Positions 13,999 through 43,634 are shown, numbered from the stretch's first letter. The stretch is DNA of 64,000 nt from Candidatus Nomurabacteria bacterium (GCA_023898465.1 CP060223.1:64001-128000); one strand, 5' to 3'. Notes: a model not told the origin generated them from the sequence alone. Numbers and translations: made by a program.

Positions 13999-14036
13999 CA
14001 TAGAGAAAGTTGAAGAAGTTTTAGGAATTTCCTGAT

Positions 14037-26314: not shown

Positions 26315-26329
26315 TTTTTCCAAAAACGA

Positions 26330-26372: not shown

Positions 26373-26379
26373 TATCAGG

Positions 26380-26490: not shown

Positions 26491-26660
26491 GCAATCACCT
26501 CCTTTCAATTGATGTGATTTCACGTAGGGTCTAGTGTACGTGTCTGAGAACGTATTGTCTAGACTCTGTCAACCCCATACCACATTGGGTATAGGGTTGT
26601 ATCGCGCACCGATTCTGGTGCGAGGTCAACCCTTCGCGAGTGAACAAAAAAGACTTTCTG

Positions 26661-27761: not shown

Positions 27762-27856
27762 TACCTTCTAGGATGGAGACATGCAACGCACGGGGGGACT
27801 GTGCGTGTTTGGAACGTTGACATGCTATAAGGATGTTGATCCGGGAGTGAAGAGTC

Positions 27857-28957
27857 ATGGGAAACGTACTCGTGGTTGGGACGGGAACGATCGGCAAGCC
27901 GCTCATCGGTTTGCTCACCAAGAGAATGGAAGGTCTTGGTATCAGTCAGGTTGCTTTTCACAAGCGGACTCCGCAAGCCGATACCACGCCTTCGATTCGT
28001 CGACTAGTTGATCGTGGTGCGCTCTTGGTCTGTGATGAAGAGGCGAGGGATGATTTCCATCGCTATGGCCTGGAGCCGCAGATGACGCGCGATGAGGCGT
28101 TAGCCTGGGCTGACGTGGTGATAGACTGCACGCCAGCCGGCAACGCACACAAGACTGGTCGAGCGGTGAACAAGAAGGGTGTGGTGGTTGAGTGCCCACC
28201 CTGGTATCCAGCCCACGAAGACAGTACCCTCGGCTTCATCGCCCAGGGTTCAGAAGAGGGCTTTGGCCAGCCTTTTGCGTTGGACATCAACAACGAACAG
28301 GTTGATCCGAACGCACACAAGTACGTCCAGGTTGTGTCGTGTAACACGCATAACCTCCTCGTGCTACTTGATCTCTTCGGGAAGCTCGGAGTGGGCAGGA
28401 TCAAGGGTCGTTTCGTGATGATTCGCCGCGCGACGGACATCAGTCAACCGGACAATGTTTCTGCTCCCAAGGTCGATAAGCACAAGGAGCTTCGGGGCGA
28501 TCGACACTTCGGTACACACCACGCCTACGATGCTTGGCGGGTTCTTCAGACCATGGGCGTTGATTACGACCTGTTTTCTTCAGCACTGCAGACACCGACC
28601 CAGTACATGCATGTCTTGCATTTCTTCCTCGAGGTTGAGCGTCCACCGAGTCATGAAGAAATCATCGCAGCAATTCGCGAGCGTCCTCTCGTGGCAACTA
28701 CTGAGTACTGCAACACGGGACAGGCCTTCTCGGAAGCGCGCGACGACGGGTTCTACGGTCGAGTACTCGACCAGACGGTCATTCCAGTGAAGACCTTGGT
28801 AGTGAACGGGAATGAGATCACTGGTTTCGCGTTCACTCCGCAGGACGGCAACAGTCTGCTCTCAACCGCAGCGGCGGCTGCACGCTTCCTCGATCCAGTT
28901 GGTTGGAGAGATCGGATCACTAACTGTTTCGGGAAGTACATGTTCGACGAGGTCTGA
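27857..28957 (+). CDS. gap: glyceraldehyde-3-phosphate dehydrogenase, archaeal-type (class II)
   Basis: The N-terminal motif is VVGTGTIGK, followed by DVVIDCTPAG. The active-site region VQVVSCNTHNL and the motif VMIRRATD are hallmarks of class II GAPDH. The gene is visibly GC-richer than its neighbours. Confidence 0.7.
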   Translation: MGNVLVVGTGTIGKPLIGLLTKRMEGLGISQVAFHKRTPQADTTPSIRRLVDRGALLVCDEEARDDFHRYGLEPQMTRDEALAWADVVIDCTPAGNAHKTGRAVNKKGVVVECPPWYPAHEDSTLGFIAQGSEEGFGQPFALDINNEQVDPNAHKYVQVVSCNTHNLLVLLDLFGKLGVGRIKGRFVMIRRATDISQPDNVSAPKVDKHKELRGDRHFGTHHAYDAWRVLQTMGVDYDLFSSALQTPTQYMHVLHFFLEVERPPSHEEIIAAIRERPLVATTEYCNTGQAFSEARDDGFYGRVLDQTVIPVKTLVVNGNEITGFAFTPQDGNSLLSTAAAAARFLDPVGWRDRITNCFGKYMFDEV

Positions 28958-29002
28958 TCAAGCACACTGTTCATTCACGTCCCGCCTCAAGTGAGGATCA
29001 CT

Positions 29003-29536
29003 ATGATCCAAAATCAAGAGGCGGGACTTTTTCTTTTCTTCAAGATTGGGGAGTGCTATGATATAGCTACCATGCATATTAGTTTAAACTTGCCACAATT
29101 CCGTCGTCAGCGCGCACTATTTATCGTGACCGATAAGGAACACGCGAAGTTTTTTGAAGTTTCCAATGGTGAGATTAACGAGCTGGAAGAGATGGCAATT
29201 CATCCTGACCCGAGTGAAGGTAGATTAGCCAGCGGCGGTCGTCGTAAAAAAATTCCCCGCAAAGGTAGGCTTGTTAAGTCACCACTCGGCCAAGAGGGGC
29301 TTTATTATCAGTTTGCCAAAAAAGTAAGTCAGGGCGGTTTAGCTTTGGAAAAAAAGCGGCCCTATAAAGCGATTTATCTTTTTGCGCCACATCACTACCG
29401 ACATGAATTACTTGATCGCCTGCATGCCTATGTGACCAAAAAAATCGCCCACGTGATTGATGGCGACTATATTCATGAACATCCAGTGGAATTACTGCAT
29501 CGTGTTCGTTCAATTGCAAAACTGGATGGAGTATAA
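29003..29536 (+). CDS. Hap (host-attachment protein)/baeRF-like family protein
   Basis: The segments LFIVTDKEHAKFFEV ... IHPDP..GR ... YKAIYLFAPHHYRHELLDRLHAYV...HVIDGDY follow the Host_attach family layout. A GAGGA RBS lies 7 nt before the ATG at 29003. Confidence 0.45.
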   Translation: MIQNQEAGLFLFFKIGECYDIATMHISLNLPQFRRQRALFIVTDKEHAKFFEVSNGEINELEEMAIHPDPSEGRLASGGRRKKIPRKGRLVKSPLGQEGLYYQFAKKVSQGGLALEKKRPYKAIYLFAPHHYRHELLDRLHAYVTKKIAHVIDGDYIHEHPVELLHRVRSIAKLDGV

Positions 29537-29743
29537 GTAGTTTTGTATTGGGAAGGAGCTACACAATTAAATGAAATAATGTTGTAGTATTTCGTAAAAT
29601 CTTGCGAATTATTTTTTTATTTGCGCGTTTTTTTATATGTAATGAGTTTTGTGTGAATATTTTTTTGCGTACATTATGTAAAAAATATTTTATGTGTTGT
29701 TGTGTACAAATGTAATTTGTTGTATATTTTGTGTACAATGTAC

Positions 29744-29772
29744 TTGACAAGATTTCGGATGACTTTTTTAAT
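29744..29772 (+). promoter_or_regulatory. sigma70-like promoter (TTGACA-N17-TTTAAT) preceded by AT-rich region with two TGTGTACAA repeats
   Basis: The sequence is cttgacaagatttcggatgactttTTTAAT, followed by the RBS aaggggg and the ATG at 29815. The tgtgtacaa repeats sit at 29701 and 29730. Confidence 0.45.
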
Positions 29773-29814
29773 GAGAGTATATTGAATACATCGCACATGA
29801 AAGGGGGTGGCGAT

Positions 29815-29964
29815 ATGGCAACAAAGAAGCGCGCAACAAAGCGCAAGACCAAGAAGCCTGCAAAGCGAAAGGTAGTACGCCGCAAGGTAGCAAAAAAAAC
29901 TACAAAGCGAAAGACAACCAAGCGCAAAACAACAAAGCGTAAGACGACTAAGCGTAAGCGCTAG
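29815..29964 (+). CDS. small lysine-rich histone H1-like DNA-binding protein (49 aa, KRKTT repeats)
   Basis: The product is MATKKRATKRKTKKPAKRKVVRRKVAKKTTKRKTTKRKTTKRKTTKRKR. It has an RBS, a promoter and a downstream T-rich terminator. Confidence 0.6.
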   Translation: MATKKRATKRKTKKPAKRKVVRRKVAKKTTKRKTTKRKTTKRKTTKRKR

Positions 29965-30062
29965 TCTTTTTTCGTCTTCGTAAATCAGAAGGGGTCTCAC
30001 ACAGAGGCTCTTTCTGTTTTTTATATGCTATGGTATACTTTTTCGGTAAATATATTAGGGGG

Positions 30063-30935
30063 ATGTCCGATCACGCAATAACAATTCGTGAAGAGTATCA
30101 GCGAAAGGTCTTTATATTTATTTCGCTTTTTTTGTTACTCGCCTTAATCGCCGCTGGTATATTTGCTTTTTCATTCCGTAGTAACCAGATATTGCAAGAA
30201 CGCCAGCAAGAATTGCAGGAAGCTGCTTTTAGGGTTGCTAGAAAAATACCAATTACTGCGCATGAGGCTCTTATTTCGAGAGATCAACAAGAAAGCGATG
30301 AATATCTTGAAGTTCAGACATTATTGAAGGCAATTTTAGATGCAAATCCGGGCTTTGACGATGTGTATACATTACGCCCTACTCAAACAGCGCATATTTT
30401 TCAATTTATTGTAAGTGGTAAAGATACTGAAGATGAGAATAATGATGGTATTATTGATGAAAGCGAAGAAAAAGCTTATTTAACAGAATTATATGACGCC
30501 ACAAATTCTCCAGAATTAGAAAAAGGCTTACTTGCCCCTACTGCAGACAAAAATATTACTTATGATAAATGGGGATCGTGGTTGTCAGGGTACGCACCTT
30601 TACGTAATGCAAAAGGACAAGCAGTTGCAGTTGTGGGTGTAGACATGAAAGCGGAGCTAATTAAAGAACGACGCGCAGAGTTAGCAAGGAATGTTGGAAT
30701 TGCGATGCTGCTTGTCGTGCCAATTATTATTTTAGCCGCCTTTTTATTAGCGCGCTGGTTAAGCCGGCCTTTTGAGGTGCTTGCGCTAGGTATGTCACGA
30801 GTATCGCATGGTGACTACCATTATCGCTTGCCCATGAAGGGCGATAAGATAAATGATGCCTTTAGTGAACTGTTCAATAATATGTTGAACATGTACGATC
30901 CAGAACATCGACCAAAGCGGGATCAAAAAAATTAG
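30063..30935 (+). CDS. membrane sensor-like protein: TM, Cache/PDC-like extracytoplasmic domain, TM, HAMP domain, no output domain
   Basis: It has two hydrophobic helices and a HAMP-like segment (RPFEVLALGMSRVSHGDYHYRLPMKGDKINDAFSELFNNM). It stops 40 aa after the HAMP segment. The RBS ttaggggg precedes the ATG at 30063. Confidence 0.5.
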   Translation: MSDHAITIREEYQRKVFIFISLFLLLALIAAGIFAFSFRSNQILQERQQELQEAAFRVARKIPITAHEALISRDQQESDEYLEVQTLLKAILDANPGFDDVYTLRPTQTAHIFQFIVSGKDTEDENNDGIIDESEEKAYLTELYDATNSPELEKGLLAPTADKNITYDKWGSWLSGYAPLRNAKGQAVAVVGVDMKAELIKERRAELARNVGIAMLLVVPIIILAAFLLARWLSRPFEVLALGMSRVSHGDYHYRLPMKGDKINDAFSELFNNMLNMYDPEHRPKRDQKN

Positions 30936-31077
30936 CTAAATATATACTCGTTTATTTATACTCTTTGATCTTGTCATTTGTGGGTGACAGGGTTGACAAA
31001 AAGGGGTGTTTTGGCATACTTTATCTAGTTCTTTGATCCGCAGGCGAACCACAACTCTTTGACAAGGAGTGACACGG

Positions 31078-31260
31078 ATGAATCAGTCTGTAGCGCAGGG
31101 AAGCGAAGTCCAGAGTGTACACATCCACTGTGTACAGGAAGGCGGATCTCGCTGTTCGGTTTGCCATACCCAGTTTGCTGACGGCGATGACGTCTGCCAG
31201 CAGGGCCATCAGATCGGCGAGACCTACGAGGTTTCCGTCCCTATCAACAAGGCTGCCTAG
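31078..31260 (+). CDS. small Cys4 zinc-ribbon-like protein (60 aa)
   Basis: The Cys pattern is HCVQEGGSRCSVCHTQFADGDDVCQQGH. An aaggag RBS sits 8 nt upstream, and a hairpin plus T-run lies downstream. It is GC-richer than its flanks. Confidence 0.4.
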   Translation: MNQSVAQGSEVQSVHIHCVQEGGSRCSVCHTQFADGDDVCQQGHQIGETYEVSVPINKAA

Positions 31261-31322
31261 CAGCCACAATGCTCCTCTTCGCAGCTTGCGCGGAGGAGTA
31301 TTTCTTTATTTTAGGCTATCCC

Positions 31323-31351
31323 TTGACAAGATAGGGTTTTTCATGTAGTAT
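31323..31351 (+). promoter_or_regulatory. sigma70-like promoter (TTGACA-N17-TAGTAT)
   Basis: The sequence is cttgacaagatagggtttttcatgTAGTAT, 20 nt upstream of the pilin-like gene. Confidence 0.5.
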
Positions 31352-31371
31352 TCGCGGTTAACTTATCACCT

Positions 31372-31962
31372 ATGCAAAAGAACACCCTACAAGTCATCGC
31401 AATATTGGGCTTAAGCGTTCTCGTAGCACTCGAGCTCGCGCTACTCATTACCCGCTTTTTTGGCATAATTTCGCTAGAACAAGCCAAAAATGAGGAAAAA
31501 GCCAGTCAAAATACTGTGGTTGTGCTTTCTCCGCAAAAGCGGATCGAAGAAGTGCAAAGTATTGTTGCAGCATTGAAAGAGTATAACGAGGATCGCAAAA
31601 GCTATCCTAAGACGCTGCAAGGCTTAGTTCCGGCCTACTTATCAGGCCCAAGCGATCCGAGCACTGGATTTTCCGCCTATCGTTATGTCCCAATTGGTGA
31701 GCCGATTGAGTTTTACACGCTTACCTACACCATTACCGAGGACTACAACGAGCAATTACTGGCCGGCCAGCACGTGGCAAGTCCAAAAGGCTTAACTGGT
31801 GGAGAATTCCCACTAAGCGGCTCTGATTTAGATAATGATGGTGTGGATGACGCTGTAGAAATTTATGTCTATCGCACTGATAGTCAAAATCCTGACACTG
31901 ATAATGATGGATTCTCTGATGGTGTCGAGATTAGCAGCGGTCATAACCCACGAGGAAAATAG
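31372..31962 (+). CDS. type IV pilin/pseudopilin-like protein with C-terminal thrombospondin-type-3 Ca-binding repeats
   Basis: An N-terminal TM helix is followed by a GspG-like segment (IEEVQSIVAALKEYNEDRKSYPKTLQGLVPAYLS..PSDP). Two DxDxDGxxD repeats are present (DLDNDGVDDAVE, DTDNDGFSDGVE). There is no canonical G/FTLIE prepilin site. Confidence 0.45.
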   Translation: MQKNTLQVIAILGLSVLVALELALLITRFFGIISLEQAKNEEKASQNTVVVLSPQKRIEEVQSIVAALKEYNEDRKSYPKTLQGLVPAYLSGPSDPSTGFSAYRYVPIGEPIEFYTLTYTITEDYNEQLLAGQHVASPKGLTGGEFPLSGSDLDNDGVDDAVEIYVYRTDSQNPDTDNDGFSDGVEISSGHNPRGK

Positions 31963-31963
31963 T

Positions 31964-32728
31964 ATGGAATCTACGCAATCAACAACTTTTACAAGCAAAT
32001 TACTACGCCGCAAAGGCGTGGTCAGCATCGTGGTGTTATTGGCTCTGGCGATGAGCTACGGCGTGCTCTTAACTCAACCTTTTCTTTATCAGGCACGTGT
32101 GGAGCTGCTTATTATTCAGCAGCAGTCAGAGAATCAAGATTTACTCTCTGCACTTCGCGCCACTGAACAGGTTGGTAAAGGCTTAGTTGATGTTATTAGC
32201 ACCAGTTCATTCTTTGATAAGGTGCTGGCAACCGACTTTCCAATTACTGATGATTTCGGCACAAATCCGGAAGAGCGTCGCTTAGCTTGGCAAAAAACTG
32301 CCCATGCATCTATTTCTCAGCAATCTGGAATCTTAACAGTCACCGTGCTGCACAAGAATAAAGAGCAGGCAGCGGTGATTGCCCGCGGCGTGGCGCAAGT
32401 ACTTACCACCGAGAGTCAAGAGTTTCACGGTAAGGCAAATATCATTGTGAAGGTAGTAGATGATGTCTATACCAAGCAATGGCCTGTGCAACCAAACATT
32501 CTTGGTACTACCGTAGCCGCGCTTTTCTTTGGCATCATTGCCGGTGTTGGAATTGTCGCCCTCCTTCCTTTGCCAAAAGCAAAAGAAGCCGCGCCAGCAA
32601 TTCGTCGTACTGAAAATGATATGAGTGGAGCAGCGCCAAGTGCGCGAAAGACTTTGCATGAAATACGTATGAAGTCGACTCCGCCTCCGAGCCTACCGGG
32701 CATCGATGAAGAGGAAGACGATCTCTAA
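31964..32728 (+). CDS. Wzz/GumC-like polysaccharide chain-length determinant family protein
   Basis: It has N- and C-terminal TM helices flanking a ~170-aa domain. The ATG lies 2 nt after the upstream stop. Confidence 0.4.
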   Translation: MESTQSTTFTSKLLRRKGVVSIVVLLALAMSYGVLLTQPFLYQARVELLIIQQQSENQDLLSALRATEQVGKGLVDVISTSSFFDKVLATDFPITDDFGTNPEERRLAWQKTAHASISQQSGILTVTVLHKNKEQAAVIARGVAQVLTTESQEFHGKANIIVKVVDDVYTKQWPVQPNILGTTVAALFFGIIAGVGIVALLPLPKAKEAAPAIRRTENDMSGAAPSARKTLHEIRMKSTPPPSLPGIDEEEDDL

Positions 32729-32861
32729 CACGTCGTGCATTCTCAAGGGATGGAAGAGCTTCCATCCCGGAATGAGTGCGAGACCCGTACTCTGAACGTT
32801 GACAATTGAACGTATCAGGACTGGTTCCTGCATACGACGAGATAAACTTGGAGGTTTCCGT

Positions 32862-34085
32862 ATGCGCTGTTTGACCATGGCGTTGTGCCTTTGGCTCATC
32901 TTCGTGGCCAATGCGGCGCATGCAGGTGAGTATCAGAATCTCCGACCCGGTCCGCCGGTGTTGGAGCTGGGTGCGTTTTTCGCATCAACCTTTCCCGAAG
33001 CTCTACCACAGCTGCCAGCTGGCACGGTGGTAGCACACTTCCCGTGTCCGGTGCCGGCGACATTCGTGTTTGCCGATCGGAGTCTCCGCACCTACTCACT
33101 TCCGAGTGAGGCAAAGGTGGTGGCGACGGAGCTGCGTCGGGACGATGGTGGAGCGTACTACCAGTTGCTCTATCTCCTCTCGAATAAGCAGGCGAGCTAC
33201 GCGGAGCGATTCGCGTATCCGATCTGGCTGAATAGCGATCCGGTCTACGTCCCCAACAACACCAAACTCTTGGTATTGGAACGTGGTCCCGAGCAAGCGA
33301 CGGTTGTCACTTCTGCTCCTGTGACTGCGACACCGCAGCAGCAGGGTGAAGCGATCAAGACGACGCCGGTGGTGAGAAACACGCCCGTGTCCTCTGCGCC
33401 ATCGACTGGACGGGTTGAGGGTGAGCACATCATCCATCACCCCTTCATTCGCGGGCAGCTTGATTTGAGGACGGAGTTCCTCGGTGTGAAACCCGAGAAC
33501 ATCTTCACTCATCAAGTGATTCCATCGCTTTGGCTGAACCAACACCTTGGTTTGACCGGACGTTGGGAGCGGCACGAAGCGAAGGATCTCGATCCATCGC
33601 AGGGCTGGGGAGTCGGGCTCTGTTACCGGACAGCTCCTATACATCGATTGTCGGTCGAGTACGCTCGATTGACATTTGGTGAGATGAGTTCGTCCGGGCA
33701 AAGCATTCAGCTCGTGCATTTCGAATCCAGGCTACAAACCTGGTTCCTGCATCACGAGTTGGAAGCAGAGCAGCGGGATAACGACGCGAAGGAAGTTTGG
33801 ACTCGACTACGGTCGGGGCTTGCTTTCCAAGTCGGCTATCGTAGCCGGCTGCAGATGGGCGGAGAGTTAGCTAACCTGAACTACGAACTCGTAGCACAGG
33901 ACGGCTACTACTACGTGTCTGCACTTGGGACGCGCTTCAATCGATCTCACTACGGAGCATTTGCCAGCTTGGATACCCATCTGGGTGATCACTTCCCACT
34001 ACGACTTCTGGTCGGCGGCGGGAAGGGCAGTGTTCCAGAATGGAACTACATCAATGCCGAGCTGAGACTCGGAGTTGATTTCTGA
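32862..34085 (+). CDS. secreted OMP-like protein: signal peptide, N-domain, S/T/P linker, C-terminal beta-barrel-like domain ending in Phe
   Basis: The signal peptide is MRCLTMALCLWLIFVANAAHA, and a GGAGG RBS precedes the start. The C-terminal 230 aa show an alternating hydrophobic pattern and end in ...AELRLGVDF*. The GC content is high. Confidence 0.6.
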   Translation: MRCLTMALCLWLIFVANAAHAGEYQNLRPGPPVLELGAFFASTFPEALPQLPAGTVVAHFPCPVPATFVFADRSLRTYSLPSEAKVVATELRRDDGGAYYQLLYLLSNKQASYAERFAYPIWLNSDPVYVPNNTKLLVLERGPEQATVVTSAPVTATPQQQGEAIKTTPVVRNTPVSSAPSTGRVEGEHIIHHPFIRGQLDLRTEFLGVKPENIFTHQVIPSLWLNQHLGLTGRWERHEAKDLDPSQGWGVGLCYRTAPIHRLSVEYARLTFGEMSSSGQSIQLVHFESRLQTWFLHHELEAEQRDNDAKEVWTRLRSGLAFQVGYRSRLQMGGELANLNYELVAQDGYYYVSALGTRFNRSHYGAFASLDTHLGDHFPLRLLVGGGKGSVPEWNYINAELRLGVDF

Positions 34086-34335
34086 TGTACGAATCCTGGC
34101 CACTTGGTCAGTACTCATAACTCGTCGGGTGGTCAGGAGATCCGTAAGGATTTCTACAAAAGGACCTAAGGGTCCGCGACCTGTGCCGAACGCACACGGA
34201 GGACAACATGCGAAAGCGTGCTCCGCCGACTATCTGATGAGCTTGTGTAACTGACCATGCCCCAATCAACTTGTTTGGGGCTAGGGATTAACCTGCCCCG
34301 ACAACAAAAAATTGGGGCAAGCCAAGGAGGAAGCC

Positions 34336-35625
34336 TTGTTCAAGCTTCGCATCAGCGCGATCTTCGCGCTTCTCATCCTTCTGGGTGCCGGTCTCTATGG
34401 CTGCGCTCAGGAGCCCATCGTGTTCCAGCCCGATCAGGATGTGCCGACCGATCAGCTGCCGGGCGATGGCACAGCCACGCTCAGTCTGCAGATCGGCGGC
34501 GTACCGGCCCAGCACAATGGAGGCGCTTCGAGTGCTTTCATGGTGACCAATACGGTGCAGGTGATCGGCAACATCTTCCTCACCGGTGACCGACTGGACA
34601 CCGAGTGGAAGATGCAGAACTGGAGCAGCGGCGATGTCCAAATCCAGACCATGAACGGTCGTTGGTATTCGGTCGCTCCTTCGGTCGACGGCAACGTCCA
34701 GATCACCAACTTCCTCATCAACGACATCCAGCCGCAGCATTTCGTGCAGCTGGATGAGATGAAGGGGATCTTCGCCCAGGTCAAGCTGTTGCCGGATTCG
34801 TCTGGCTTCCAGTTGTATCAGCTCGAAGACAACCGGGATCAGCTGATGACGGTGCACTACCGAGTCTACGATCCTGCCCCGGCTGACTTCCAGGGACTCC
34901 AGATCGTGGGAACTTCCACGAACTGGAATCAGATGTATCCGGAGGCGATCTACAGCTCCGACTACGGTATCTGGGAGTGGTGGGGTCCGGCGTTGAAGGC
35001 GAGCGGCAACAAGGTCGCTTTCCGGATTCGCGGAAGTGGGGCTCTGCCGACCTCGTATTTGATCACTGCCCAAGGCGAAGTGAACGGTACGCCGGTTGGT
35101 GAAGAGGTCCAGCTCGACTGTACGGAGTTGGTGGAGAACGTGAATACGTACTTCGCCAGCACGACCTGGTTCACCGACCGCGGTTGGTTGGCTGGGAAGC
35201 GAGTCTACCGACTCATCATCCACGAAGATGGTGGTATCGAACAGGGATGCGGAGGCATCCCGATTCAGACGACCATCTCGATCACGAACAACCGCATTCC
35301 GCAGGATCACCACCTGATGTGTGTCTACGACGGCTACAACGACAATCAGCCGTTCGAGATTCCTCGGGTGAGCGGCAAGTGGGAAACCACGCAGATCACG
35401 CTCCATTCTGGTCCGGCGGCTCTGTCGGTCTGGGATACGAGTGACGGAGACAAGCCGATCATCACCACGGTGAAGATCGGCAGCCAGGAAGTGAAGCACC
35501 TCGAAGTGTTTCAGGATCCTGGTTCGGAGCCGACGGTTCACTTCACCTTCGTCCTTGGCGAGGGTCCGACCCTGCAACAGGGGACGGACAATCGCACTGG
35601 TACGATCGGAGGAGAGAACTACTAA
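34336..35625 (+). CDS. lipoprotein, unknown function
   Basis: The RBS aaggagg lies 5 nt before the TTG at 34336 (the ORF track uses TTG 34312). The lipobox is LLGAGLYGC. The antisense 456-aa ORF is Arg-rich and spurious. Confidence 0.6.
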   Translation: MFKLRISAIFALLILLGAGLYGCAQEPIVFQPDQDVPTDQLPGDGTATLSLQIGGVPAQHNGGASSAFMVTNTVQVIGNIFLTGDRLDTEWKMQNWSSGDVQIQTMNGRWYSVAPSVDGNVQITNFLINDIQPQHFVQLDEMKGIFAQVKLLPDSSGFQLYQLEDNRDQLMTVHYRVYDPAPADFQGLQIVGTSTNWNQMYPEAIYSSDYGIWEWWGPALKASGNKVAFRIRGSGALPTSYLITAQGEVNGTPVGEEVQLDCTELVENVNTYFASTTWFTDRGWLAGKRVYRLIIHEDGGIEQGCGGIPIQTTISITNNRIPQDHHLMCVYDGYNDNQPFEIPRVSGKWETTQITLHSGPAALSVWDTSDGDKPIITTVKIGSQEVKHLEVFQDPGSEPTVHFTFVLGEGPTLQQGTDNRTGTIGGENY

Positions 35626-35667
35626 TCGCCAGCCCTGGGAACGCTGACGATTGCACATTCTTGCCCC

Positions 35668-35712
35668 GCCCGCTACAACACTTTGTGTTGAAGCGCGGCG
35701 GGGCTTTCTTTT
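35668..35712 (+). terminator. intrinsic terminator (GC hairpin + ctttctttt)
   Basis: The sequence is gccccgcccgct...agcgcggcggggc followed by a T-run. A TTGACA promoter lies 70 nt downstream (35782). Confidence 0.5.
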
Positions 35713-36010
35713 ACCTTGGCAGGATGGAAATGTAACTAGTCTTCAAGTTCTGATGTTTGTTGAAGCAATGTTTCGTAGGGCTTGACAAAATAGCACTTTT
35801 CCTGCTAAAGTTCGCCGTTAACCAATGCGTAAAACCATCTAAAAAACGAACATTTTTACCACAACGACCTTAGTCGTTTGTGCTACTTATGGACATGAAT
35901 GGCTTGAGAAATGCCTAGCATTCCTCAACCGATTCTGGACCGGAAGTACTGCAGTAATTGTCATTCTTTGACAATTGAATTCAGAAGTCATTCTCACAGA
36001 GGAGGGTCTC

Positions 36011-37207
36011 ATGCGGACCTGGTATGTGGTTCTTGCGCTACTGGCGCTCGTCTCCTTTGGGTCCGCTCGGGCCCAGGTCATCGAAATCCCGATCGACTAC
36101 GTCGCGACGGATTCGGTGATTGCGAACTGGCCGCATCTCAACATCGGGGGCAACCCGGTGTACAAGAGCGGCTACCCGGCTGATTCCTTGGCAGTACATG
36201 CTGCTCGGGACGGCTGGTTCAAGACGACCTTCAACTTTCCCGTCGGGATCTACTGTCTCGATAAGGATGGGAAGATCATCAAGGGACGTGTCGAACCCGG
36301 ACAAACCATGAAGAATGGTGCCCGGGCCGATACGCTGATCGTGTCTATTCTAGCTGAGACGCCGGAGCAGACGCTGTATCAGATCCACGTTATTCAGGCG
36401 TGCGGTAACCCCGTGCTCTGGTCAGGCGTCGGTGTGTTGAAAGCACCGAAGCCGACTGGCCCACTGCCGCCGCCAACCCTGACTGTTCCGAAGCCCCCAG
36501 CACCACCTCCCATTGCGGAGACGGAGCCGCCGATCGTAGTAGAGCCTGAAAAACACTTCAGGCTACCGATCGATGGTTGGGCTGGAGTGGCAGGAAGTAA
36601 GTCACTCGAGTCCAAGGCTTGGTCGCTCTTCGAGGGCGTCTACATCGACTTTCCGTTGATCGTGGACAAGCTCACGTTCAAGTTTGGGGCGGCAACGTCT
36701 CAGGCAAACTACGAGAAGCTCCGTGGTCGGACGAGTTACCGAGGTGTTGGCGGCGATATGAGTCGCTGGCAAGTCGGCCTCTTCTACCGGCCTTGGGACA
36801 ACATCCAGGTTACCGGCCTGATTGGTCAGCAGTATGACCATAAGGCTGGCGACTGGCAGGATGGCGTCCAGCTGGAAGGAGTGCTGGGTTTCCCCATCGG
36901 TCGCTGGTGGAACGATGAGGATGTCAGCTACGGCACTACGACCAAAGCACTTTGGTTCCGCACTCGACATGCCTACAAGCTGTCGGGTGAAGGAATGCAT
37001 TGGTGGTCGATCGGCGGCGAGTTTGTCTATGACTCGTTCATGGACAACGATGGTCGATTCTACACTTCGCGCGTTCACGTATTTGGGAAGCGAGAGTTTC
37101 CCGGATTCTGGAATCGCGAGGCTGTCTTCATCTTCGGTGGCGGAAGAGGGAGTAAAGACGAGGCTTGGGGCCTCATAGCAGAACTAGGGCAGCGGCTCTG
37201 GTTCTAG
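36011..37207 (+). CDS. secreted OMP-like protein: signal peptide, N-domain, Pro-rich linker, C-terminal beta-barrel-like domain ending in Phe
   Basis: The signal peptide is MRTWYVVLALLALVSFGSARA, with a GGAGGG RBS. The linker is PKPTGPLPPPTLTVPKPPAPPPIAETEPP. It ends in ...GQRLWF*. The architecture matches the gene at 32862. Confidence 0.6.
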   Translation: MRTWYVVLALLALVSFGSARAQVIEIPIDYVATDSVIANWPHLNIGGNPVYKSGYPADSLAVHAARDGWFKTTFNFPVGIYCLDKDGKIIKGRVEPGQTMKNGARADTLIVSILAETPEQTLYQIHVIQACGNPVLWSGVGVLKAPKPTGPLPPPTLTVPKPPAPPPIAETEPPIVVEPEKHFRLPIDGWAGVAGSKSLESKAWSLFEGVYIDFPLIVDKLTFKFGAATSQANYEKLRGRTSYRGVGGDMSRWQVGLFYRPWDNIQVTGLIGQQYDHKAGDWQDGVQLEGVLGFPIGRWWNDEDVSYGTTTKALWFRTRHAYKLSGEGMHWWSIGGEFVYDSFMDNDGRFYTSRVHVFGKREFPGFWNREAVFIFGGGRGSKDEAWGLIAELGQRLWF

Positions 37208-37221
37208 AAGGGAGATTCCTG

Positions 37222-38385
37222 ATGCGTTTTCTCCGTTTCATGGCCGCTGCGCTGTTGCTGCTCGGTGCCTTCGGGTGCCAGAAGCTCCCCAGCGAGCCGA
37301 TCGACACCGGTGGCAGTCAGCCGCCGCAGGAGTACAACGGACCTGAGTCTGGTCTCGCGCTCAACTTCGAGCGTGGCGCCGGACAATACGAATTCGTTTC
37401 CGACATGTTCATCCATCAGGGTGGCGTGACGGATTGGGCGACTGTAACAGTCAACCCGGATAACTTCTTCCTCACCACCTACGCTGGACACTGGTATAGC
37501 GACATGCTGACCAGGGACGGTGTGCCGGTGCTGGGAGACTACACTCTGGCCGGTTCGACTCCGTCCAACTACTGGATGGATGAGAACCGCGGTGTTTTCG
37601 CGAGCCACATGGTTCTCGTCAGCGACGCTGACAGTGCCTGGGTCTGGCAGTGGCCCTCCAATGCCAGCCAGTTGGTCGACCTCGACATCGAGGTGCTCAA
37701 CTGGTCATCGGCAACGGATCTTGGCGTGGTCGGTACGCCGACGTGTTACGTCGTGCACCCGGCCATGTTGAACCACTTGCATGACAACGTCTACGGACGC
37801 TCGCTACGCCTCCTGCCCGGTGATGCCAAAATCGCTGTGATGGATATGTACGAGCGAGTTGGTCTGGGTGATGCAGTCACGGTCCGTATCAACGGCACCG
37901 AGCTGGTCGCCTACGTCGATGACTTCACGCATGACAACCAGCCGACGGTACATCGTTACTTCCGCTTTCACGTGAACGCGGATGGGACGGTGAGCTCGAT
38001 CGGTACTGAGAACCGATTCTCGTATGGGAACACGGTCTCGGTCAGCAATTCCAATATCGATCCCAGCGCTACGGTGTATCTCAACGGCACAGGCCTCACC
38101 AACGGTGAGATGATGCCGATGACCTATGTCGGCAGCTGGACCTGGCAGCTCACCGGTCTCACGACCTGGGTGGGCGAGCAGGATTTGAGGGTGAGTATGG
38201 AAGACGGGACTGGTGTGTTTCGTACCGTTCGCTTGAACGGAACGGAGTTGCACCACCTGGCTGCCGTGCCGCTCGACCCGGATCCTCCGATCCAGGTCTT
38301 CCGATGCACGCCCATGCATGACCACACGGTGATGCAGGGCGAGGACAACCGGGCCGCTGACATCGGCATGGAGACCGGCGGATGA
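37222..38385 (+). CDS. lipoprotein, unknown function
   Basis: The lipobox is LLLLGAFGCQK. An RBS gaagggag is present. Confidence 0.6.
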   Translation: MRFLRFMAAALLLLGAFGCQKLPSEPIDTGGSQPPQEYNGPESGLALNFERGAGQYEFVSDMFIHQGGVTDWATVTVNPDNFFLTTYAGHWYSDMLTRDGVPVLGDYTLAGSTPSNYWMDENRGVFASHMVLVSDADSAWVWQWPSNASQLVDLDIEVLNWSSATDLGVVGTPTCYVVHPAMLNHLHDNVYGRSLRLLPGDAKIAVMDMYERVGLGDAVTVRINGTELVAYVDDFTHDNQPTVHRYFRFHVNADGTVSSIGTENRFSYGNTVSVSNSNIDPSATVYLNGTGLTNGEMMPMTYVGSWTWQLTGLTTWVGEQDLRVSMEDGTGVFRTVRLNGTELHHLAAVPLDPDPPIQVFRCTPMHDHTVMQGEDNRAADIGMETGG

Positions 38386-39869
38386 GCGAAGAAGGTGATG
38401 CGACAAGTCGTGAGGTGCCTCCCCAAGTAAGAGAGGTACTTCGCCAAATGCAACGAGTCGCGAAGAGAGATCGCAAAAAGAAGGCGAAGCATCGAGCCCG
38501 CAGAGAGGAACGGAAAAAACAGGCAAAGGCAAGAGTGAAAGCTCGAACGGGTGAGCAGTCAACAGGTTCTCCAAGGAAAGGAGATGAACCTCGTCGTCCT
38601 GTTCCGCCGCCTCAGCCTGCACCAAGTGCTTCGCCGTCCTACGCATCTCTACTGGGAGATAAGCTTGGGGGAATTCCTCAAGTAAGACGAAATCCGAAGA
38701 GAGCAGAAACAAACCTGGGAGGCTCGCCGAGCTTCCCCCAAGATGAGGAGGGTCATGTAATGCCCGAGGTGTCCATGCGCGAAGAAGGAGGATCGAGGAA
38801 GCTTTTGATTGCCACTGTGGCGATCTTGTGCGTCCTCTTGGTCGGGGTGCTGATCTACACGCATCCCTGGAGTCCTCAGCAAGGTCTGACGGAGACCGAG
38901 GTGTCGGATATGATCAGGGAGTTCGCTGATCAGATGCCGGCTCCGGTCGCTGAAATCCCCGATGACGTGGTACGCAAGGGTGACCTTGCTTCGATGCAGC
39001 CGGCGGCGATCACTCTCAGCGCTTTCGACGAGACCTATCTCGATACGCTGTGGGCGACGGTCAAGGATCCGGTGACCGGGAAGATCGACTCGACGATGGT
39101 CGTGAAGACCCGGACGAGGAATCCCATCACTGATTTGCAGAAGGACGTGAAGAGTACCAATGCCGAGGCTCGTGCAGCCAAGGTTGCGGCACGGAATGCG
39201 GAGAAGCGTCTCAAGGAGACGCCGACCCAATTCGCCGTGACCGTGCCTTCGACTTCCACATCGACTTCGCTTCACCAGCCTGGTGGAGTGCAGTTGGGTG
39301 GTACCACGACCACGACGGCGCCTGTGCAGATGACGACTCGAACGAGTACGCAAGCCGGGCTGGTGGCTGGTACGATCGGAGGTGGTTCGCCGCCCCCGCC
39401 GCCGGCTAGCAACGTCGCTGTGTCCATGACTACCACGATGGTTCCGGCCGGTGAACAGGTGATGGGTGGGGACGGCTTGATGAAGCAGGGTCCGGCCGTT
39501 GCCTTTGTCTACAACGGTCAGACCTACGTTCGTCGGGATCTGGTGCAGCGCAACAAGTACGGCGACCCGATCAACCCCAGTCGAGCTGACCAGAACTTCT
39601 ACGTGATGGCCGGCGAGCAGGGGATGAACTGGAAGCTCGTCAATCCGGCCAAGCAGAAGATGACGGTCCAGGGCGACTATTTGGTCTGGCCTGGCGTGAT
39701 CAAAGGTCCTTTCCAGGTCGGCTGGGTGGATCCGAACGACCCGGCCTACATGCCTGAAAGTGGCGTAGTCTGGGCTCCGATCGCTGAGTTCTACTCCGGC
39801 TACGACGGGACCTTCTGTCGTGACCCCGACTATCAGTTGAGGGCTGTGGCGATCCAGCAGATGCCGTAG
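38382..39869 (+). CDS. membrane-anchored protein: K/R-rich cytoplasmic N-tail, one TM, T/S/P-rich region, C-terminal ~130-aa domain shared with the gene at 40047
   Basis: An ATGA overlap joins it to the upstream gene. The TM is LLIATVAILCVLLVGVLIY. The C-terminal segment GPAVAFVYNGQTYVRRDLVQRNKYGDPINP...GDYLVWPGVIKGPFQVGWVDPNDP...VWAPIAEFYSG aligns with residues ~265-375 of the next gene. Confidence 0.6.
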   Translation: MSEEGDATSREVPPQVREVLRQMQRVAKRDRKKKAKHRARREERKKQAKARVKARTGEQSTGSPRKGDEPRRPVPPPQPAPSASPSYASLLGDKLGGIPQVRRNPKRAETNLGGSPSFPQDEEGHVMPEVSMREEGGSRKLLIATVAILCVLLVGVLIYTHPWSPQQGLTETEVSDMIREFADQMPAPVAEIPDDVVRKGDLASMQPAAITLSAFDETYLDTLWATVKDPVTGKIDSTMVVKTRTRNPITDLQKDVKSTNAEARAAKVAARNAEKRLKETPTQFAVTVPSTSTSTSLHQPGGVQLGGTTTTTAPVQMTTRTSTQAGLVAGTIGGGSPPPPPASNVAVSMTTTMVPAGEQVMGGDGLMKQGPAVAFVYNGQTYVRRDLVQRNKYGDPINPSRADQNFYVMAGEQGMNWKLVNPAKQKMTVQGDYLVWPGVIKGPFQVGWVDPNDPAYMPESGVVWAPIAEFYSGYDGTFCRDPDYQLRAVAIQQMP

Positions 39870-39897
39870 TCCGCGACTGCAACGTTCTTTACTTCAA

Positions 39898-39936
39898 CCC
39901 CCGCTATATCTACGGATGTAGCGGGGCTTTCTTTTT
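39898..39936 (+). terminator. intrinsic terminator (cccccgcta-N12-tagcgggg + T-run)
   Basis: A perfect 8-bp stem is followed by ctttcttttt. Confidence 0.7.
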
Positions 39937-39943
39937 ACTATGC

Positions 39944-39972
39944 TTGACAAAATGCCAAAAATAGCATACTAT
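39944..39972 (+). promoter_or_regulatory. sigma70 consensus-like promoter (TTGACA-N17-TACTAT)
   Basis: The sequence is cttgacaaaatgccaaaaatagcaTACTAT, 75 nt upstream of the 40047 start. Confidence 0.6.
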
Positions 39973-40046
39973 AGCCGGTTCTTTTTGCACCTCACAATCT
40001 AGTTACACAAGCGAGAGACACTACACATCCCAACCGGGAGGACTAC

Positions 40047-41225
40047 ATGCTCCAACGTTTCTTTGCGTGGTCTTTGCTGGCGCTCTTCGCCTTCGGCTGT
40101 GCCGGAGGTAGTGCCACGCTGAAGCAGCATCAGCAGCCCGTCGGGCAGGTCTACGTGGGCGACTGCGTGCCGTCGGATGGCATTCATCCGACTGGCTACC
40201 TTCGCCTGACCAAGCCGCCGGAGGACTTCAACTCGATGCTGTCGATGTGGCACGCTGTTCAGGCCGAGGGTTCATCCGAGCCCTCGAAGATCGAGGTCGA
40301 CTACATCCGGGTCTACGCCCACGTAGCCGGCCGCGATTCACTGCTCGACAGCGACGAGTACAACGACATGATCGGGGACGGAGGTCTCTATCTTCGTCAT
40401 CCCTCGTGGTTCTACAACGATGACCATACGAGTCTGCCCTGCGAGTTCGACATGGTCAACGGTTACTTGGTCTTGCGACCGAGCGACTACCCGGATCGAG
40501 TCTTTCACTGGTGGAATTCCTACCATCCAGCGGAGGATGTCTGGCGTGTCACTATTCCGGCCGGTGCTACCAACTGCTGGGCAGAGACTCGGATTCGGAT
40601 TACGGGTCCAGCCTATGTCCAGGGCGGCATTGACTACTGGCGTTCACTCACTGCTCCGTACGGCGGCGTCGAAGTGAACAACCGGGAAGCCTGCATGTCC
40701 AACTGGACTTGCTCGGCTGATCCGGGTTGGCAGACCATCGTGGTTGGTAAGGACAAGCCGCAGGGCGACAGCGCTGTGGTCGATGCCGATGAGAACGGGA
40801 AACCGAAAGTCGTCCAGGCTCCGGTCTACGATCCTTTCGAGAGCAAGGCCGACGGTCTCCTCAAGAAAGGCGCTGCTGTCTGTTTTGTACAAGACGGACG
40901 CACCTACTTCCCGAAGGAGATCGTGGCGACGAACAAGTACAGCGATCCGGCTCGCCCCAAGAATGGCAAGTACTACTTGCTGGGCGGGGTGAAGCCATGG
41001 GCTATCGCCGGCGACGATCAAGAGCTCCGGGAAAACGGGGATTACCTCTACTATCCCGGCGTGGTCGACAAGGTGTGTCAGGTGGGCTGGGAGGATCCGG
41101 CCGACGCTTCGGCCGATCCGTCCGGAACCGTATGGAGCGCTTCAGCGGAACTTTTCTCGGGTCGCCCGGGATCAGTTTCGAAGAACGGTCAGTACGGCTA
41201 CCTGCCAGTCAATCTCTCCAACTAG
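40047..41225 (+). CDS. lipoprotein with C-terminal domain paralogous to the gene at 38382
   Basis: The lipobox is LLALFAFGCAGGS, with a GGGAGG RBS. The C-terminal segment AVCFVQDGRTYFPKEIVATNKYSDPARP...GDYLYYPGVVDKVCQVGWEDPAD...VWSASAELFSG aligns with the upstream gene. Confidence 0.6.
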   Translation: MLQRFFAWSLLALFAFGCAGGSATLKQHQQPVGQVYVGDCVPSDGIHPTGYLRLTKPPEDFNSMLSMWHAVQAEGSSEPSKIEVDYIRVYAHVAGRDSLLDSDEYNDMIGDGGLYLRHPSWFYNDDHTSLPCEFDMVNGYLVLRPSDYPDRVFHWWNSYHPAEDVWRVTIPAGATNCWAETRIRITGPAYVQGGIDYWRSLTAPYGGVEVNNREACMSNWTCSADPGWQTIVVGKDKPQGDSAVVDADENGKPKVVQAPVYDPFESKADGLLKKGAAVCFVQDGRTYFPKEIVATNKYSDPARPKNGKYYLLGGVKPWAIAGDDQELRENGDYLYYPGVVDKVCQVGWEDPADASADPSGTVWSASAELFSGRPGSVSKNGQYGYLPVNLSN

Positions 41226-41334
41226 GAGAAGGTGATTCACCCCGGTGCATGCAATGCGTGCGCCGGGTTTTCTTATTGACCATGGGCAATATTTTTGCTA
41301 TAGTCGCCTGTTCACTTTCTTTTACTGAGTTGTA

Positions 41335-43107
41335 ATGTTACGCAATATTCTTGTCATTCTCGGACTCGCCATTTCACTCACCAGCTTCACGCCAAAGCAG
41401 GAGAGTCGCGATGGCGTGTATGCGTTTACCACGCCTCCTTTAAGTATTGGTCAAGGAGTGGTGGTGACAAATGATGGCATTGTGATTGGCGATGGCGTGA
41501 CTGATTCCCGGCAAGGAATACAGGAGCTGCTTAGTGGTGATGACTTGGAACATTTTCTTGACCAAAGCTCTCAGCAGTTTGATGCCGTAGAGCTGCGTAT
41601 CTGGACATGGTTCCTGGGTCAAAACGATTTTACTATTGGCACGGTGAATAATTTCCTTGCCCGTGCTCATGCCCACGGCTTGCAAGTGTACTTAAATACT
41701 TGGGAATATCCTGGCACACATCCCGACCTTCTGCCTGCTGAGTATCAGGCATATAAACTTGCTGACACCGGACAACGCGTGCCGGCCCTAGTGAATGATG
41801 GACAAATCAGCGCGCAGCACATTGATAAAGCAAACCCCGCTGCACTGGAATGGATGAGTGGGCAACTGCGGAGTGCGCTGACTTCTTTTGACGTTTTCGA
41901 TGGATACCTCATTGTTGAGGATAGGGTTTCCGATTGGGTGCATGGGTCTTTCCCACAGTATGTACGTTATTGGGATTCACCGACCTATTCCGATGCAGCG
42001 CTTGATTCATTTCAACATTATCTCCTACTGCATGGTCAGGATGCAACACAGCGATTCCCAGTGGATCGTCCGGAGTTAGTTTCTCAATTCACCCAGTATG
42101 TTCCTTCAGCCCCAGAAAGTGCTTTATGGAAGTATTGGTATCAATGGCGCTTTGAACTTTTTGCTGACTATGTGGAGAGTCTGAGTAATGCGGTGAAGTC
42201 AGTGCAAAGGGTGCCAGTGCTTTACATGCCTTGGCAACGTGTGGTGGATGAATTTGATTACGCCTACGCTGATGATTGGTCAGCCAATCGTTGGGATGTT
42301 GGATACGGTCCGGGCAATCCCGAGAATGCCATCTTCGGCGTCTCGCTTCACACCCTGGCAAAACGCGGATCAATTGATGCCTACGTGCATGAATTTGGAG
42401 AGGATGGTACGCATGAGCTCTGGCCAATGTCTTTTAATGCGCTGCAGTTAGAAAAAGCCAAAATTGCTTTGTCAGATTCTTATGTTACCCTAGGCAGCTT
42501 TATTCAATTTTTTAATTACGAAGGTAGAGAAATAGTTTCCCCTGAACTACTTCAAGATGCCTTAGCCATCGGACGGCAAAACGAGGCAAAGATTTTTGTA
42601 GCTTACGATGTTGCCACACTGTATGATCGTTCAGGTCGCTATGATGCACATACCTCAGCGCTTTGGCAGCAAGCAAGAACACATGCATATGCCATTGATG
42701 AAGAGGAAATCCGAAACGCAAGTCAGCTAGCGCCAGCGCAGGTTTTTGCTCGAAAATTACCTGAACAGATTCCAGAAGGAGTGGCCGCCTGGACTGCCGA
42801 TGATGGGTATGTGTATGTGCGGACCGAGGCTCTGCCCGGTAACGGACCATACTATGTCGTATACGATCACTGGAATGCACCACTACTTGATGCGCAGCAC
42901 CTTATGGAATACTATCCAGAGCATGGTTTAGTCGCTATACATGCTGATGGGTTAAAAGGCGCTGCTTTTCAAATCATTACTCCGGGACCGCAGGGTAGCG
43001 TCGCGTGGTCAGAAATTCGTGAACAGCTTTGTGAGCTGGGGTATCAAGGGATCGTATGTAGCCCAAATAGTTGGCTTTATCAACCAGTGGGGCTTCATTC
43101 CATGTAG
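41335..43107 (+). CDS. secreted protein, putative TIM-barrel glycoside hydrolase-like (tentative)
   Basis: The signal peptide is MLRNILVILGLAISLTSF. NTWEYPG and YLIVEDRVSDW are possible clan GH-A acid/nucleophile-like motifs. A terminator and a promoter (TTGACC-N17-TATAGT) lie upstream. Confidence 0.35.
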   Translation: MLRNILVILGLAISLTSFTPKQESRDGVYAFTTPPLSIGQGVVVTNDGIVIGDGVTDSRQGIQELLSGDDLEHFLDQSSQQFDAVELRIWTWFLGQNDFTIGTVNNFLARAHAHGLQVYLNTWEYPGTHPDLLPAEYQAYKLADTGQRVPALVNDGQISAQHIDKANPAALEWMSGQLRSALTSFDVFDGYLIVEDRVSDWVHGSFPQYVRYWDSPTYSDAALDSFQHYLLLHGQDATQRFPVDRPELVSQFTQYVPSAPESALWKYWYQWRFELFADYVESLSNAVKSVQRVPVLYMPWQRVVDEFDYAYADDWSANRWDVGYGPGNPENAIFGVSLHTLAKRGSIDAYVHEFGEDGTHELWPMSFNALQLEKAKIALSDSYVTLGSFIQFFNYEGREIVSPELLQDALAIGRQNEAKIFVAYDVATLYDRSGRYDAHTSALWQQARTHAYAIDEEEIRNASQLAPAQVFARKLPEQIPEGVAAWTADDGYVYVRTEALPGNGPYYVVYDHWNAPLLDAQHLMEYYPEHGLVAIHADGLKGAAFQIITPGPQGSVAWSEIREQLCELGYQGIVCSPNSWLYQPVGLHSM

Positions 43108-43135
43108 GGAGTTCTTTGTCAGAGGAGGAGTGAAT

Positions 43136-43600
43136 ATGCAGTGGAGGTTGTGGATCTACGTGTTGGCTTGCGTACTGTGCGCATCGCAGTCTGCGTACGG
43201 TCAGTCTGAGCAATTCCAGCCAATGTACAGCATAGCGCCAGAGTATCCACTTTCAGCGTGGATTGCTGGTGAGTCTGGGTCGGTGATGGTGGGAATGCAG
43301 ATTGACCCGGTCGGCCGTGTGGAGGAGGTCTGGGTTCAGTCTTCAACAAGCTCGTTGTTTGAGCGGTATGCGCTCGAGGCGGCGAAGCAGTGGGTTTTTG
43401 TACCGATCATGCCCATGGTGGATCTGATCGACGCGGTGGATGGCGTTATGGTCTTGCGTAGAATTCCGGAGCTTGAAACAGCGAGTTACCTGGAAACACA
43501 TCCGGGAATCATTGACAGTCTCGTCTACGAGTGGACGGAAAAACAGGACCAACCGTCCCCGGTCCGTAGCGTCAGTATCCCTTTCAATTTCAACCACTAA
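43136..43600 (+). CDS. secreted TonB C-terminal domain protein (stand-alone, no Pro-rich/TM part)
   Basis: The RBS agaggagg precedes the start, and a signal peptide is present. The motif YSIAPEYPLSAWIAGESGSVMVGMQIDPVGRVEEVWVQSSTSSLFERYALEAAKQWVFVP matches the TonB_C fold signature (YP..A...G.SG.V.V.F.I...G.V). Confidence 0.55.
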   Translation: MQWRLWIYVLACVLCASQSAYGQSEQFQPMYSIAPEYPLSAWIAGESGSVMVGMQIDPVGRVEEVWVQSSTSSLFERYALEAAKQWVFVPIMPMVDLIDAVDGVMVLRRIPELETASYLETHPGIIDSLVYEWTEKQDQPSPVRSVSIPFNFNH

Positions 43601-43634
43601 GTACGAGCCGCTTATCCTCTGGGTAGGCGGCTTT

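Follow-up and report, generated by a model that had tools for sequence, protein, structure and literature searches.

A 64,000-nucleotide (nt) window from Candidatus Nomurabacteria, a bacterium of the candidate phyla radiation (CPR; GCA_023898465.1 CP060223.1:64001-128000), carries a run of envelope genes on the + strand between 31.3 and 43.6 kb. Positions refer to this window unless another locus is named. The run consists of a gene for a pilin-like protein, a gene for a CpsC/Wzz-like protein, seven genes that we call A to G and a gene for a TonB_C-domain protein. By their sequences, the products of A and C go back to an ancient duplication within an envelope-protein family that is very rare and has so far been found in CPR-like contexts only, and their C-terminal domain is predicted to be a 12-stranded beta-barrel of the outer-membrane type. 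The reading that we favour, with somewhat less than even confidence, is that this barrel is an anchor in the outermost layer of the cell itself, with the lipoprotein encoded next to each barrel protein as a partner on the cytoplasmic membrane.

Two paralogous secreted proteins with a predicted C-terminal barrel

Gene A (32862-34085, +) encodes 407 amino acids (aa) and gene C (36011-37207, +) encodes 398 aa. Both open reading frames (ORFs) are present at these starts, and GGAGG-type ribosome-binding sites were found upstream of A, C, D and F. An independent gene caller gave the same gene calls on Logan contigs that are 100% identical to window positions 26011-44848 (a Logan locus coordinate plus 26010 gives the window coordinate). 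A and C are both composed of a cleavable Sec signal peptide, a head of ~120 aa, a low-complexity spacer of ~40 aa and a C-terminal domain of ~210 aa that ends in Phe, and neither of them matches the lipobox pattern. Protein A starts with MRCLTMALCLWLIFVANAAHA/G (the slash marks the cleavage site), has a T/P/S-rich spacer and ends in ...LRLGVDF; its barrel domain is encoded at about nt 33444-34082. Protein C starts with MRTWYVVLALLALVSFGSARA/Q and ends in ...ELGQRLWF. Here, the signal peptide (residues 1-22) is followed by a head with two invariant Cys residues (residues 23-145; nt 36077-36445), a Pro-rich spacer (residues 146-185; nt 36446-36565) and the barrel domain (residues 186-398; nt 36566-37204).

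An earlier note on this DNA had described A and C as a pair of similarly built secreted proteins ending in VDF and LWF, which is borne out by the reading frames, by both ends and by the similarity of the two family profiles. Its signal peptides and linker types were also found. Its N-domain of ~190 aa was not, and is replaced by the head and spacer described above; the C-terminal domain is slightly shorter than the ~220 aa that had been given. When the two proteins were compared directly, as that note had suggested, BLASTP gave a marginal match (E 0.11), whereas the comparison of the full-length A-family and C-family profiles with hhalign was strong (97.5% probability, E 7e-12, 345 columns). 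The resemblance of A and C is real but weak. Orthologues of A were found in a related protein (P0007) and in the loci L002 (1830-2900), L001 (3-680) and L007 (5146-6159).

Substrates of the beta-barrel assembly machinery (BAM) carry a beta-signal, namely a terminal aromatic residue with alternating hydrophobic residues, and this feature is present in the A/C family. As the earlier note had seen for A and C, the pattern is kept: F or W is the final residue of 15 of the 17 family members (L of one), and the dyad hydrophobic pattern of the last strand is conserved across the family more than expected by chance. The end of C, E-L-G-Q-R-L-W-F, fits the pattern polar-x-G-x-x-hydrophobic-x-aromatic. 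Recognition of these proteins by BAM, which the earlier note had proposed, is inferred from the terminal aromatic residue.

AlphaFold2 (AF2) was run on an alignment of six C-family sequences and gave a mean predicted local distance difference test score (pLDDT) of 70. In the model, residues 188-396 of C form 12 antiparallel strands of 10-17 residues each in hairpin order, with a pLDDT of ~80-90. The head is modelled as a small beta-rich domain and the spacer as disordered, with the Pro-rich residues 147-185 predicted to be non-helical (pLDDT < 50). The barrel domain contains 14.6% Gly and 17.8% aromatic residues. In the alignment of the 17 family members, the row of A is free of gaps in all 12 strands predicted for C; strands b4-b12 are nearly fully occupied across the members, and b1-b3 are less reliably aligned. 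The C-terminal domain of C is accordingly modelled, and that of A by alignment to C, as a 12-stranded barrel of the outer-membrane type. Soluble beta-sandwiches in this place would have spoken against the barrels proposed in the earlier note; AF2, in one model from a shallow multiple sequence alignment (MSA), predicts the barrel instead.

Lipoproteins and three duplicated gene pairs

A lipoprotein gene follows each of the two barrel genes, as had been noted before, and the order barrel-lipoprotein-barrel-lipoprotein stands. Gene B (34336-35625, +) follows A and has the lipobox GLYG/C; gene D (37222-38385, +) follows C and has the lipobox GAFG/C. A third lipoprotein is encoded by F (40047-41225, +; lipobox FAFG/C). 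All three fit the PROSITE-type lipobox pattern, which their orthologues in three other loci likewise match, and G18 and C19 are invariant in the lipoprotein alignment (A3). B and D are paralogues (BLASTP E 1e-10), so that, together with the A/C profile match, the two barrel-lipoprotein pairs proved to be duplicates of each other. In addition, gene E (38382-39869, +) encodes, judged by hydropathy, a Lys/Arg-rich cytoplasmic N-terminus of ~135 aa, one transmembrane (TM) helix (residues 136-165), T/P-rich stretches and a 130-aa C-terminal domain in common with F (BLASTP E 1e-21). Since the E/F pair joins A/C and B/D, the locus is made up of three duplicated pairs and not two.

The AF2 model of D has a mean pLDDT of 58. 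The first ~135 residues of the mature protein are unresolved in it despite their strong conservation, and residues 150-345 are predicted, with low confidence, to form short-stranded beta-sandwich domains. Foldseek matched this model weakly to N-terminal carbohydrate-binding module (CBM)/Ig-like domains of GH13 enzymes, to surface glycan-binding proteins and to adhesins. The model suggests that D is a binding protein, and nothing further.

The CpsC/Wzz-like protein (31964-32728, +; 254 aa) resembles a polysaccharide co-polymerase and has two hydrophobic segments around an outside domain of ~135 aa. It matched TIGR01006 (CpsC family) with E 6e-9 and 35.6 bits (cutoff 296) and Pfam Wzz with 19.7 bits (cutoff 25.5); the match to GNVR was also below cutoff.

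The cluster is conserved and the barrel appears to be exchanged for other anchors

The gene order pilin-like, Wzz-like, A, B, C, D, E, followed by F and/or G, recurs in four further assemblies (L001, L002, L005 and L007). The synteny of barrel and lipoprotein genes, which the earlier note had proposed as a check, is kept in all four, and the gap between C and D measures 11-16 nt in all loci compared. Homologues of the CpsC/Wzz-like protein are encoded directly upstream of barrel-family genes in L002, L007, L012/L017 and L015.

Among more distant relatives, parts of the protein are replaced. In P0017-P0019 a LysM-like sequence stands in place of the head, below the Pfam threshold (19.2 and 18.8 bits for P0017 and P0019, cutoff 20.9). 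The gene of P0019 directly follows a Wzz-like gene whose product is 36% identical to that of the window. P0020 and P0021, on the other hand, keep the C-type head, with its NIGxNPV and CxNP motifs, and the Pro-rich stalk, and end in a TM helix with no barrel.

A metagenome scan with the Wzz-like family yielded 33 loci, in which the gene downstream of the Wzz-like gene is of three kinds. The first is the barrel family. The second encodes a signal peptide, a CxxxC motif, a long coiled coil and a Gly/aromatic-rich beta domain of ~140 aa ending in F or W. The third encodes a Cys-rich head, a linker and a C-terminal TM helix. An upstream context of AI-2E, DUF5656, HtrA and Wzz-like genes is common to L012/L017, which have the barrel, and to L023, L038 and L042, which have the TM helix. 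L030 has only the HtrA/Wzz-like part of this context, and its downstream protein is a coiled coil with a small beta domain. Because alternative anchors occur in one genomic slot, we take the barrel to be the module by which a stalked envelope protein is anchored at its C-terminal end. From these comparisons it looks like an exchangeable module that may be functionally tied to the CpsC-like protein.

Proteins of the coiled-coil kind were found in L020, L025 (4821-5798), L028 (2558-3496), L030 (7071-7955) and L031, with the ends VEF, VEFP, IVF and EWP. Their layout is OmpM/Omp-alpha-like, and family searches gave a single hint, a match of 17 bits to the Opacity porin family that falls below threshold. 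Proteins that end in a TM helix and have the same slot or the same head were found in L023 (7329-8252), L037-L040, L042 (7380-8321) and L043 (3284-4189), in addition to P0020 and P0021. In the metagenome-assembled genome JAZDMR01 (L002), an insertion sequence (IS) element with an rve-family transposase gene (4487-5365, -) interrupts the cluster between B and C, and the cluster is closely followed by genes for a serine recombinase and a Toprim primase-like protein (12294-16363, -). L001/L010 (CAZWTD010000006.1) is labelled as uncultured Gammaproteobacteria. It carries the whole cluster, the flavodoxin flank and a tRNA-Asn that is 100% identical to that of the window, and the label is probably wrong.

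A very rare family

An exhaustive profile search of 1.84 billion representative proteins retrieved 12 relatives of the barrel family, and a word-indexed search found five relatives of C, one of A and five of D. Groundwater metagenomes are a source of family members. Scanning metagenomes with the C family gave no loci. Searches of Pfam, NCBIfam and PHROGs with A to G were empty or gave matches below cutoff: A matched no Pfam family at E <= 0.1, C had only a chance-level match to DUF1028, and B matched no family in the three collections. G had no match in these collections or among PDB sequences, and the profile of the 17-member barrel family likewise found no match among PDB sequences. The barrel family has no relatives in the plasmid, phage and viral collections PLSDB, INPHARED and IMG/VR. 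An origin from a phage or plasmid was rejected on these grounds.

Neighbouring genes, transcription units and base composition

The pilin-like protein (31372-31962, +) is encoded by the first gene of the conserved cluster. A hydrophobic helix at its N-terminus is accompanied by a calcium-binding repeat of the bacterial TSP3 type (Pfam TSP3_bac, 28 bits, above cutoff); a T2SSG match was weak. A pilin-like gene is found at the equivalent position in L002, L005 and L007. Gene G (41335-43107, +) encodes a secreted or anchored protein of 590 aa and is the conserved last gene of the cluster, as seen from synteny in L001, L002 and L005. The orthologue of G in L002 carries a lipobox. The secreted TonB_C-domain protein (43136-43600, +; TIGR01352, 44 bits, above cutoff) has 154 aa and a cleavable signal peptide, and is devoid of a TM anchor or Pro-rich spacer. 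Its gene starts 30 nt downstream of G, has a raised GC content at third codon positions (GC3 0.65) and is missing at the corresponding position in L001 and L002.

C, D and E are tightly packed, with 14 nt between C and D and an overlap of 4 nt between D and E. A promoter-like site (35782-35811, +; TTGACA-18-TAAAGT with an upstream TG) lies in the 385-nt spacer between B and C, where it matches the consensus only, and would make C-D-E a transcription unit of its own. Further promoter-like sites precede the pilin-like gene (31323-31351) and F (39944-39972), and terminator-like hairpins follow E (39899-39926) and F (41241-41267), each of them a pattern match only. Such matches suggest the transcription units [pilin-Wzz-A-B], [C-D-E], [F] and [G-TonB_C].

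Genes A to F (32862-41225) have a GC content of 0.57-0.60 and a GC3 of 0.63-0.76, compared to 0.40-0.50 and 0.32-0.51, respectively, in most other genes of the window; G is back at the background of the genome. This block is also richer in GC than its syntenic flanks in three other lineages (L001 3-6175, covering A-E; L002 1830-9117; L007 5146-12800). No donor lineage for the block was found. A chimeric assembly was rejected, since two assemblies made independently agree with 100% identity over both GC borders of the block. Long ORFs of up to 456 aa lie antisense to the GC3-rich genes A-E (34288-35658, 33096-33719, 37804-38712 and 38649-39353, all -). The independent gene caller left them out, and we read them as mirror ORFs.

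Elsewhere in the window, at least seven large secreted proteins made of fn3, LamG and DUF2341 domains are encoded at 42-24318 (+), three of which end in WFTNIGG[LF]. Raised GC together with strongly negative GC skew was seen at 6-8, 10-12, 16-18 and 22-24 kb, and these stretches probably reflect repeated domains. A GAPDH-like gene (27857-28957, +; 366 aa), with a weak Gp_dh_C match, has a GC3 of 0.63 compared to 0.37-0.40 in its neighbours. The flanks of the cluster encode GroEL, RpoD, DnaG and PEP synthase, whose database entries are assigned to Candidatus Nomurabacteria, in line with the CPR origin of the DNA.

Comparison with known systems

The nearest known kinds are the type Va autotransporters by layout, the tethers of the OmpA/OmpM type by logic, and any 12-stranded outer-membrane barrel by fold. 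Like the type Va autotransporters BrkA, Hbp, AIDA-I and EspP, A and C are predicted to have a C-terminal 12-stranded barrel. However, they show no sequence similarity to these proteins and no PF03797 match, and their 'passenger' is only ~120 aa long and has no beta-helix. In the autotransporters a helical linker fills the pore, whereas the linker of C is Pro-rich and predicted to be disordered; moreover, the lineage has no known outer membrane or BAM. The inverse autotransporters intimin and invasin combine a periplasmic LysM with a 12-stranded barrel. Their passenger is C-terminal, whereas A and C end with the last barrel strand and their heads are not LysM. The oligosaccharide porins KdgM and NanC, also 12-stranded, are alike in fold alone: there was no Pfam KdgM match, and they are barrel-only proteins of ~210-230 aa with no head, stalk or paired lipoprotein, whereas A and C carry an extra ~185 aa of head and stalk.

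OmpM/SlpA and OmpA-type tethers follow the same logic as A and C, in that a spacer joins a wall-zone domain to a barrel. In diderm Terrabacteria, tethers of the OmpM type are the usual system (10.1101/2021.05.31.446380; PMC10628300). A and C differ from them in having no SLH, OmpA_C or LysM domain by Pfam and a proline-rich spacer in place of a coiled coil (coiled-coil variants occur in the other loci), and the barrels of OmpM, SlpA and OmpA are unlike the 12 strands predicted here.

Slam-TbpB, TbpA/B, SusC/D and BtuB/G resemble the locus in that a barrel gene adjoins a lipoprotein gene, an arrangement that is here duplicated as a pair. The barrels of Slam, TbpA/B and SusC/D have 14 strands (DUF560) or 22 strands with a plug. 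The C barrel is predicted to have 12 strands and no plug, there were no matches to TonB_dep_Rec, Plug or DUF560, and the model of lipoprotein D is unlike both SusD and TbpB, with which it has no Pfam families in common. The likeness to paired barrel/surface-lipoprotein systems that the earlier note had drawn does not hold up in strand number, plug or families, and an identity of the SusC/D, TbpA/B or Slam kind was rejected for strand number and the lack of common families. Finally, the gene that heads the cluster is similar to the Gram-positive co-polymerases CpsC/CapA (polysaccharide co-polymerase class 2b, PCP-2b) in its length of ~250 aa, its two hydrophobic segments and its weak TIGR01006 and Pfam Wzz/GNVR matches. 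It differs in scoring far below the family cutoffs and in having no gene for a bacterial tyrosine kinase (BY-kinase), polymerase or flippase nearby. What appears to be new is a sequence-orphan family with a predicted barrel of the outer-membrane protein (OMP) type, in an unexpected lineage and within a conserved CPR envelope cluster.

Possible roles of the barrel proteins

In the reading that we favour, A and C would be exported by Sec, and each would consist of a small head, a Pro/Thr-rich stalk of ~40 residues and a C-terminal 12-stranded barrel. The barrel would anchor the stalked protein in the cell's own outermost layer, which may be a patch that contains lipid, or else a sheath beneath or inside the surface layer (S-layer). 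From there the head would extend back to the wall, or it would be threaded to the outside in the fashion of an autotransporter, and we counted the sub-threshold LysM-like heads of P0017 and P0019 towards a link to the wall. Each barrel protein may work with its neighbouring lipoprotein (B with A, D with C), a putative beta-sandwich protein that would sit on the cytoplasmic membrane. All of these, together with the E/F pair and the CpsC/Wzz-like protein, would form a single module that builds the wall or the surface.

Several points weigh against such an anchor. The barrel comes from one AF2 model of C built on six sequences, with the mean pLDDT of 70 given above, and alternating hydrophobicity within strands fits a barrel and a beta-sandwich alike. 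The model of D is poor (mean pLDDT 58), the contact between barrel protein and lipoprotein is one that we only infer, and the LysM matches fall below threshold. The CPR cells of which images exist carry an S-layer and lack an outer membrane, and they are nevertheless attached to Gram-negative hosts (10.1101/2020.05.14.094862). The CPR are placed in a monoderm clade that lost the OmpM-type tethers (10.1101/2021.05.31.446380) and have lost the outer membrane (PMC10160955), and the lineage is reported to be without one (PMC12102498). Furthermore, the Omp85, POTRA, Lpt, Lol, Tol-Pal and OmpA_C families were not seen in the 64-kb window and ~70 kb of related loci, which are a small part of the genomes.

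A rather unlikely alternative is a device directed at a host. The CPR cell would be an episymbiont on a Gram-negative host, whose outer membrane would take up the barrel. The head would stay bound to the wall of the symbiont and the Pro-rich stalk would bridge the gap, so that the protein would serve as a hook and perhaps also as a pore to the periplasm of the host. This would account for an outer-membrane-type barrel in a cell without a known BAM, and the LysM-like heads of the relatives fit wall binding. The window organism belongs to the CPR, family members come from groundwater metagenomes, and groundwater CPR without an outer membrane attach to Gram-negative hosts with a dense line at the interface (10.1101/2020.05.14.094862). 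However, no known monomeric 12-stranded barrel enters a foreign outer membrane from outside via the lipopolysaccharide leaflet, and the conserved C-terminal aromatic is a mark of assembly from the periplasmic side. Moreover, the CpsC-like and lipoprotein genes of the cluster look like functions of the cell's own envelope.

It is unlikely that the lineage has kept or regained a true outer membrane with Omp85/BAM, in which A and C would be BAM substrates (porins or small autotransporters) and B and D outer-membrane lipoproteins. The literature on the CPR envelope is contrary to this, as is the lack of the marker families named above from the window and related loci. The Wzz-like protein resembles the Gram-positive CpsC type, and variants anchored by a TM helix occupy the same genomic slot. 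The barrel fold, the beta-signal-like terminus of C and the TonB_C-domain protein just downstream of G, on the other hand, would fit with an outer membrane.

We consider it quite improbable that there is no membrane barrel, and that the domain is a soluble or lattice-forming beta structure, for instance a block of the S-layer, or an AF2 artefact of the six-sequence alignment. The shallow MSA and the modest mean pLDDT are consistent with an artefact, as are three of the five models, which scored below 63, and the lack of any sequence-level link to an OMP family or PDB chain; periodic surface layers are indeed present on CPR cells (10.1101/2020.05.14.094862). Both the composition of the domain and its terminal aromatic are nevertheless OMP-like, and it would be unusual for so wide a 12-stranded barrel, lacking its own hydrophobic core, to be soluble.

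Least probable of all is a KdgM/NanC-like 12-stranded pore for a poly- or oligosaccharide of the CpsC-like protein, with CBM-like lipoproteins binding the glycan: the CpsC-like gene is always adjacent or close and the D model bears a weak likeness to CBM/Ig domains that bind starch and to surface glycan-binding proteins, but 12-stranded barrels all superpose about equally, which makes the resemblance to KdgM generic, Pfam KdgM was not matched, Pfam and NCBIfam searches found no glycosyltransferase, flippase or polymerase genes in the cluster, the structural matches of the lipoprotein have TM-scores < 0.25, and the TM-helix variants of the same slot cannot be pores.

Implications for the CPR envelope

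A large part of bacterial diversity belongs to the CPR, whose envelope is known only from few images and from missing outer-membrane marker genes. It is possible, if doubtful, that some Patescibacteria (CPR) make genuine outer-membrane-type barrels though they are held to be monoderm and BAM-less. Such barrels would point to an unseen lipid-containing or toga-like layer, or to delivery into the membrane of a Gram-negative host for attachment or uptake, with barrel and TM anchors being interchangeable beside the CpsC-like gene. Should the barrel prediction be wrong, the cluster would still be a conserved envelope module, but an ordinary one. If it is right, a conserved family of outer-membrane-type barrels with a beta-signal-like terminus is a concrete test of the rule that CPR are monoderm: either an insertase and an outer layer exist in the lineage, or barrels are assembled or used in a way that has not been described, possibly in the membrane of a host. 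The apparent exchange of barrel and TM helix in one genomic slot would also bear on how envelope proteins are rewired across transitions between diderm and monoderm cells.

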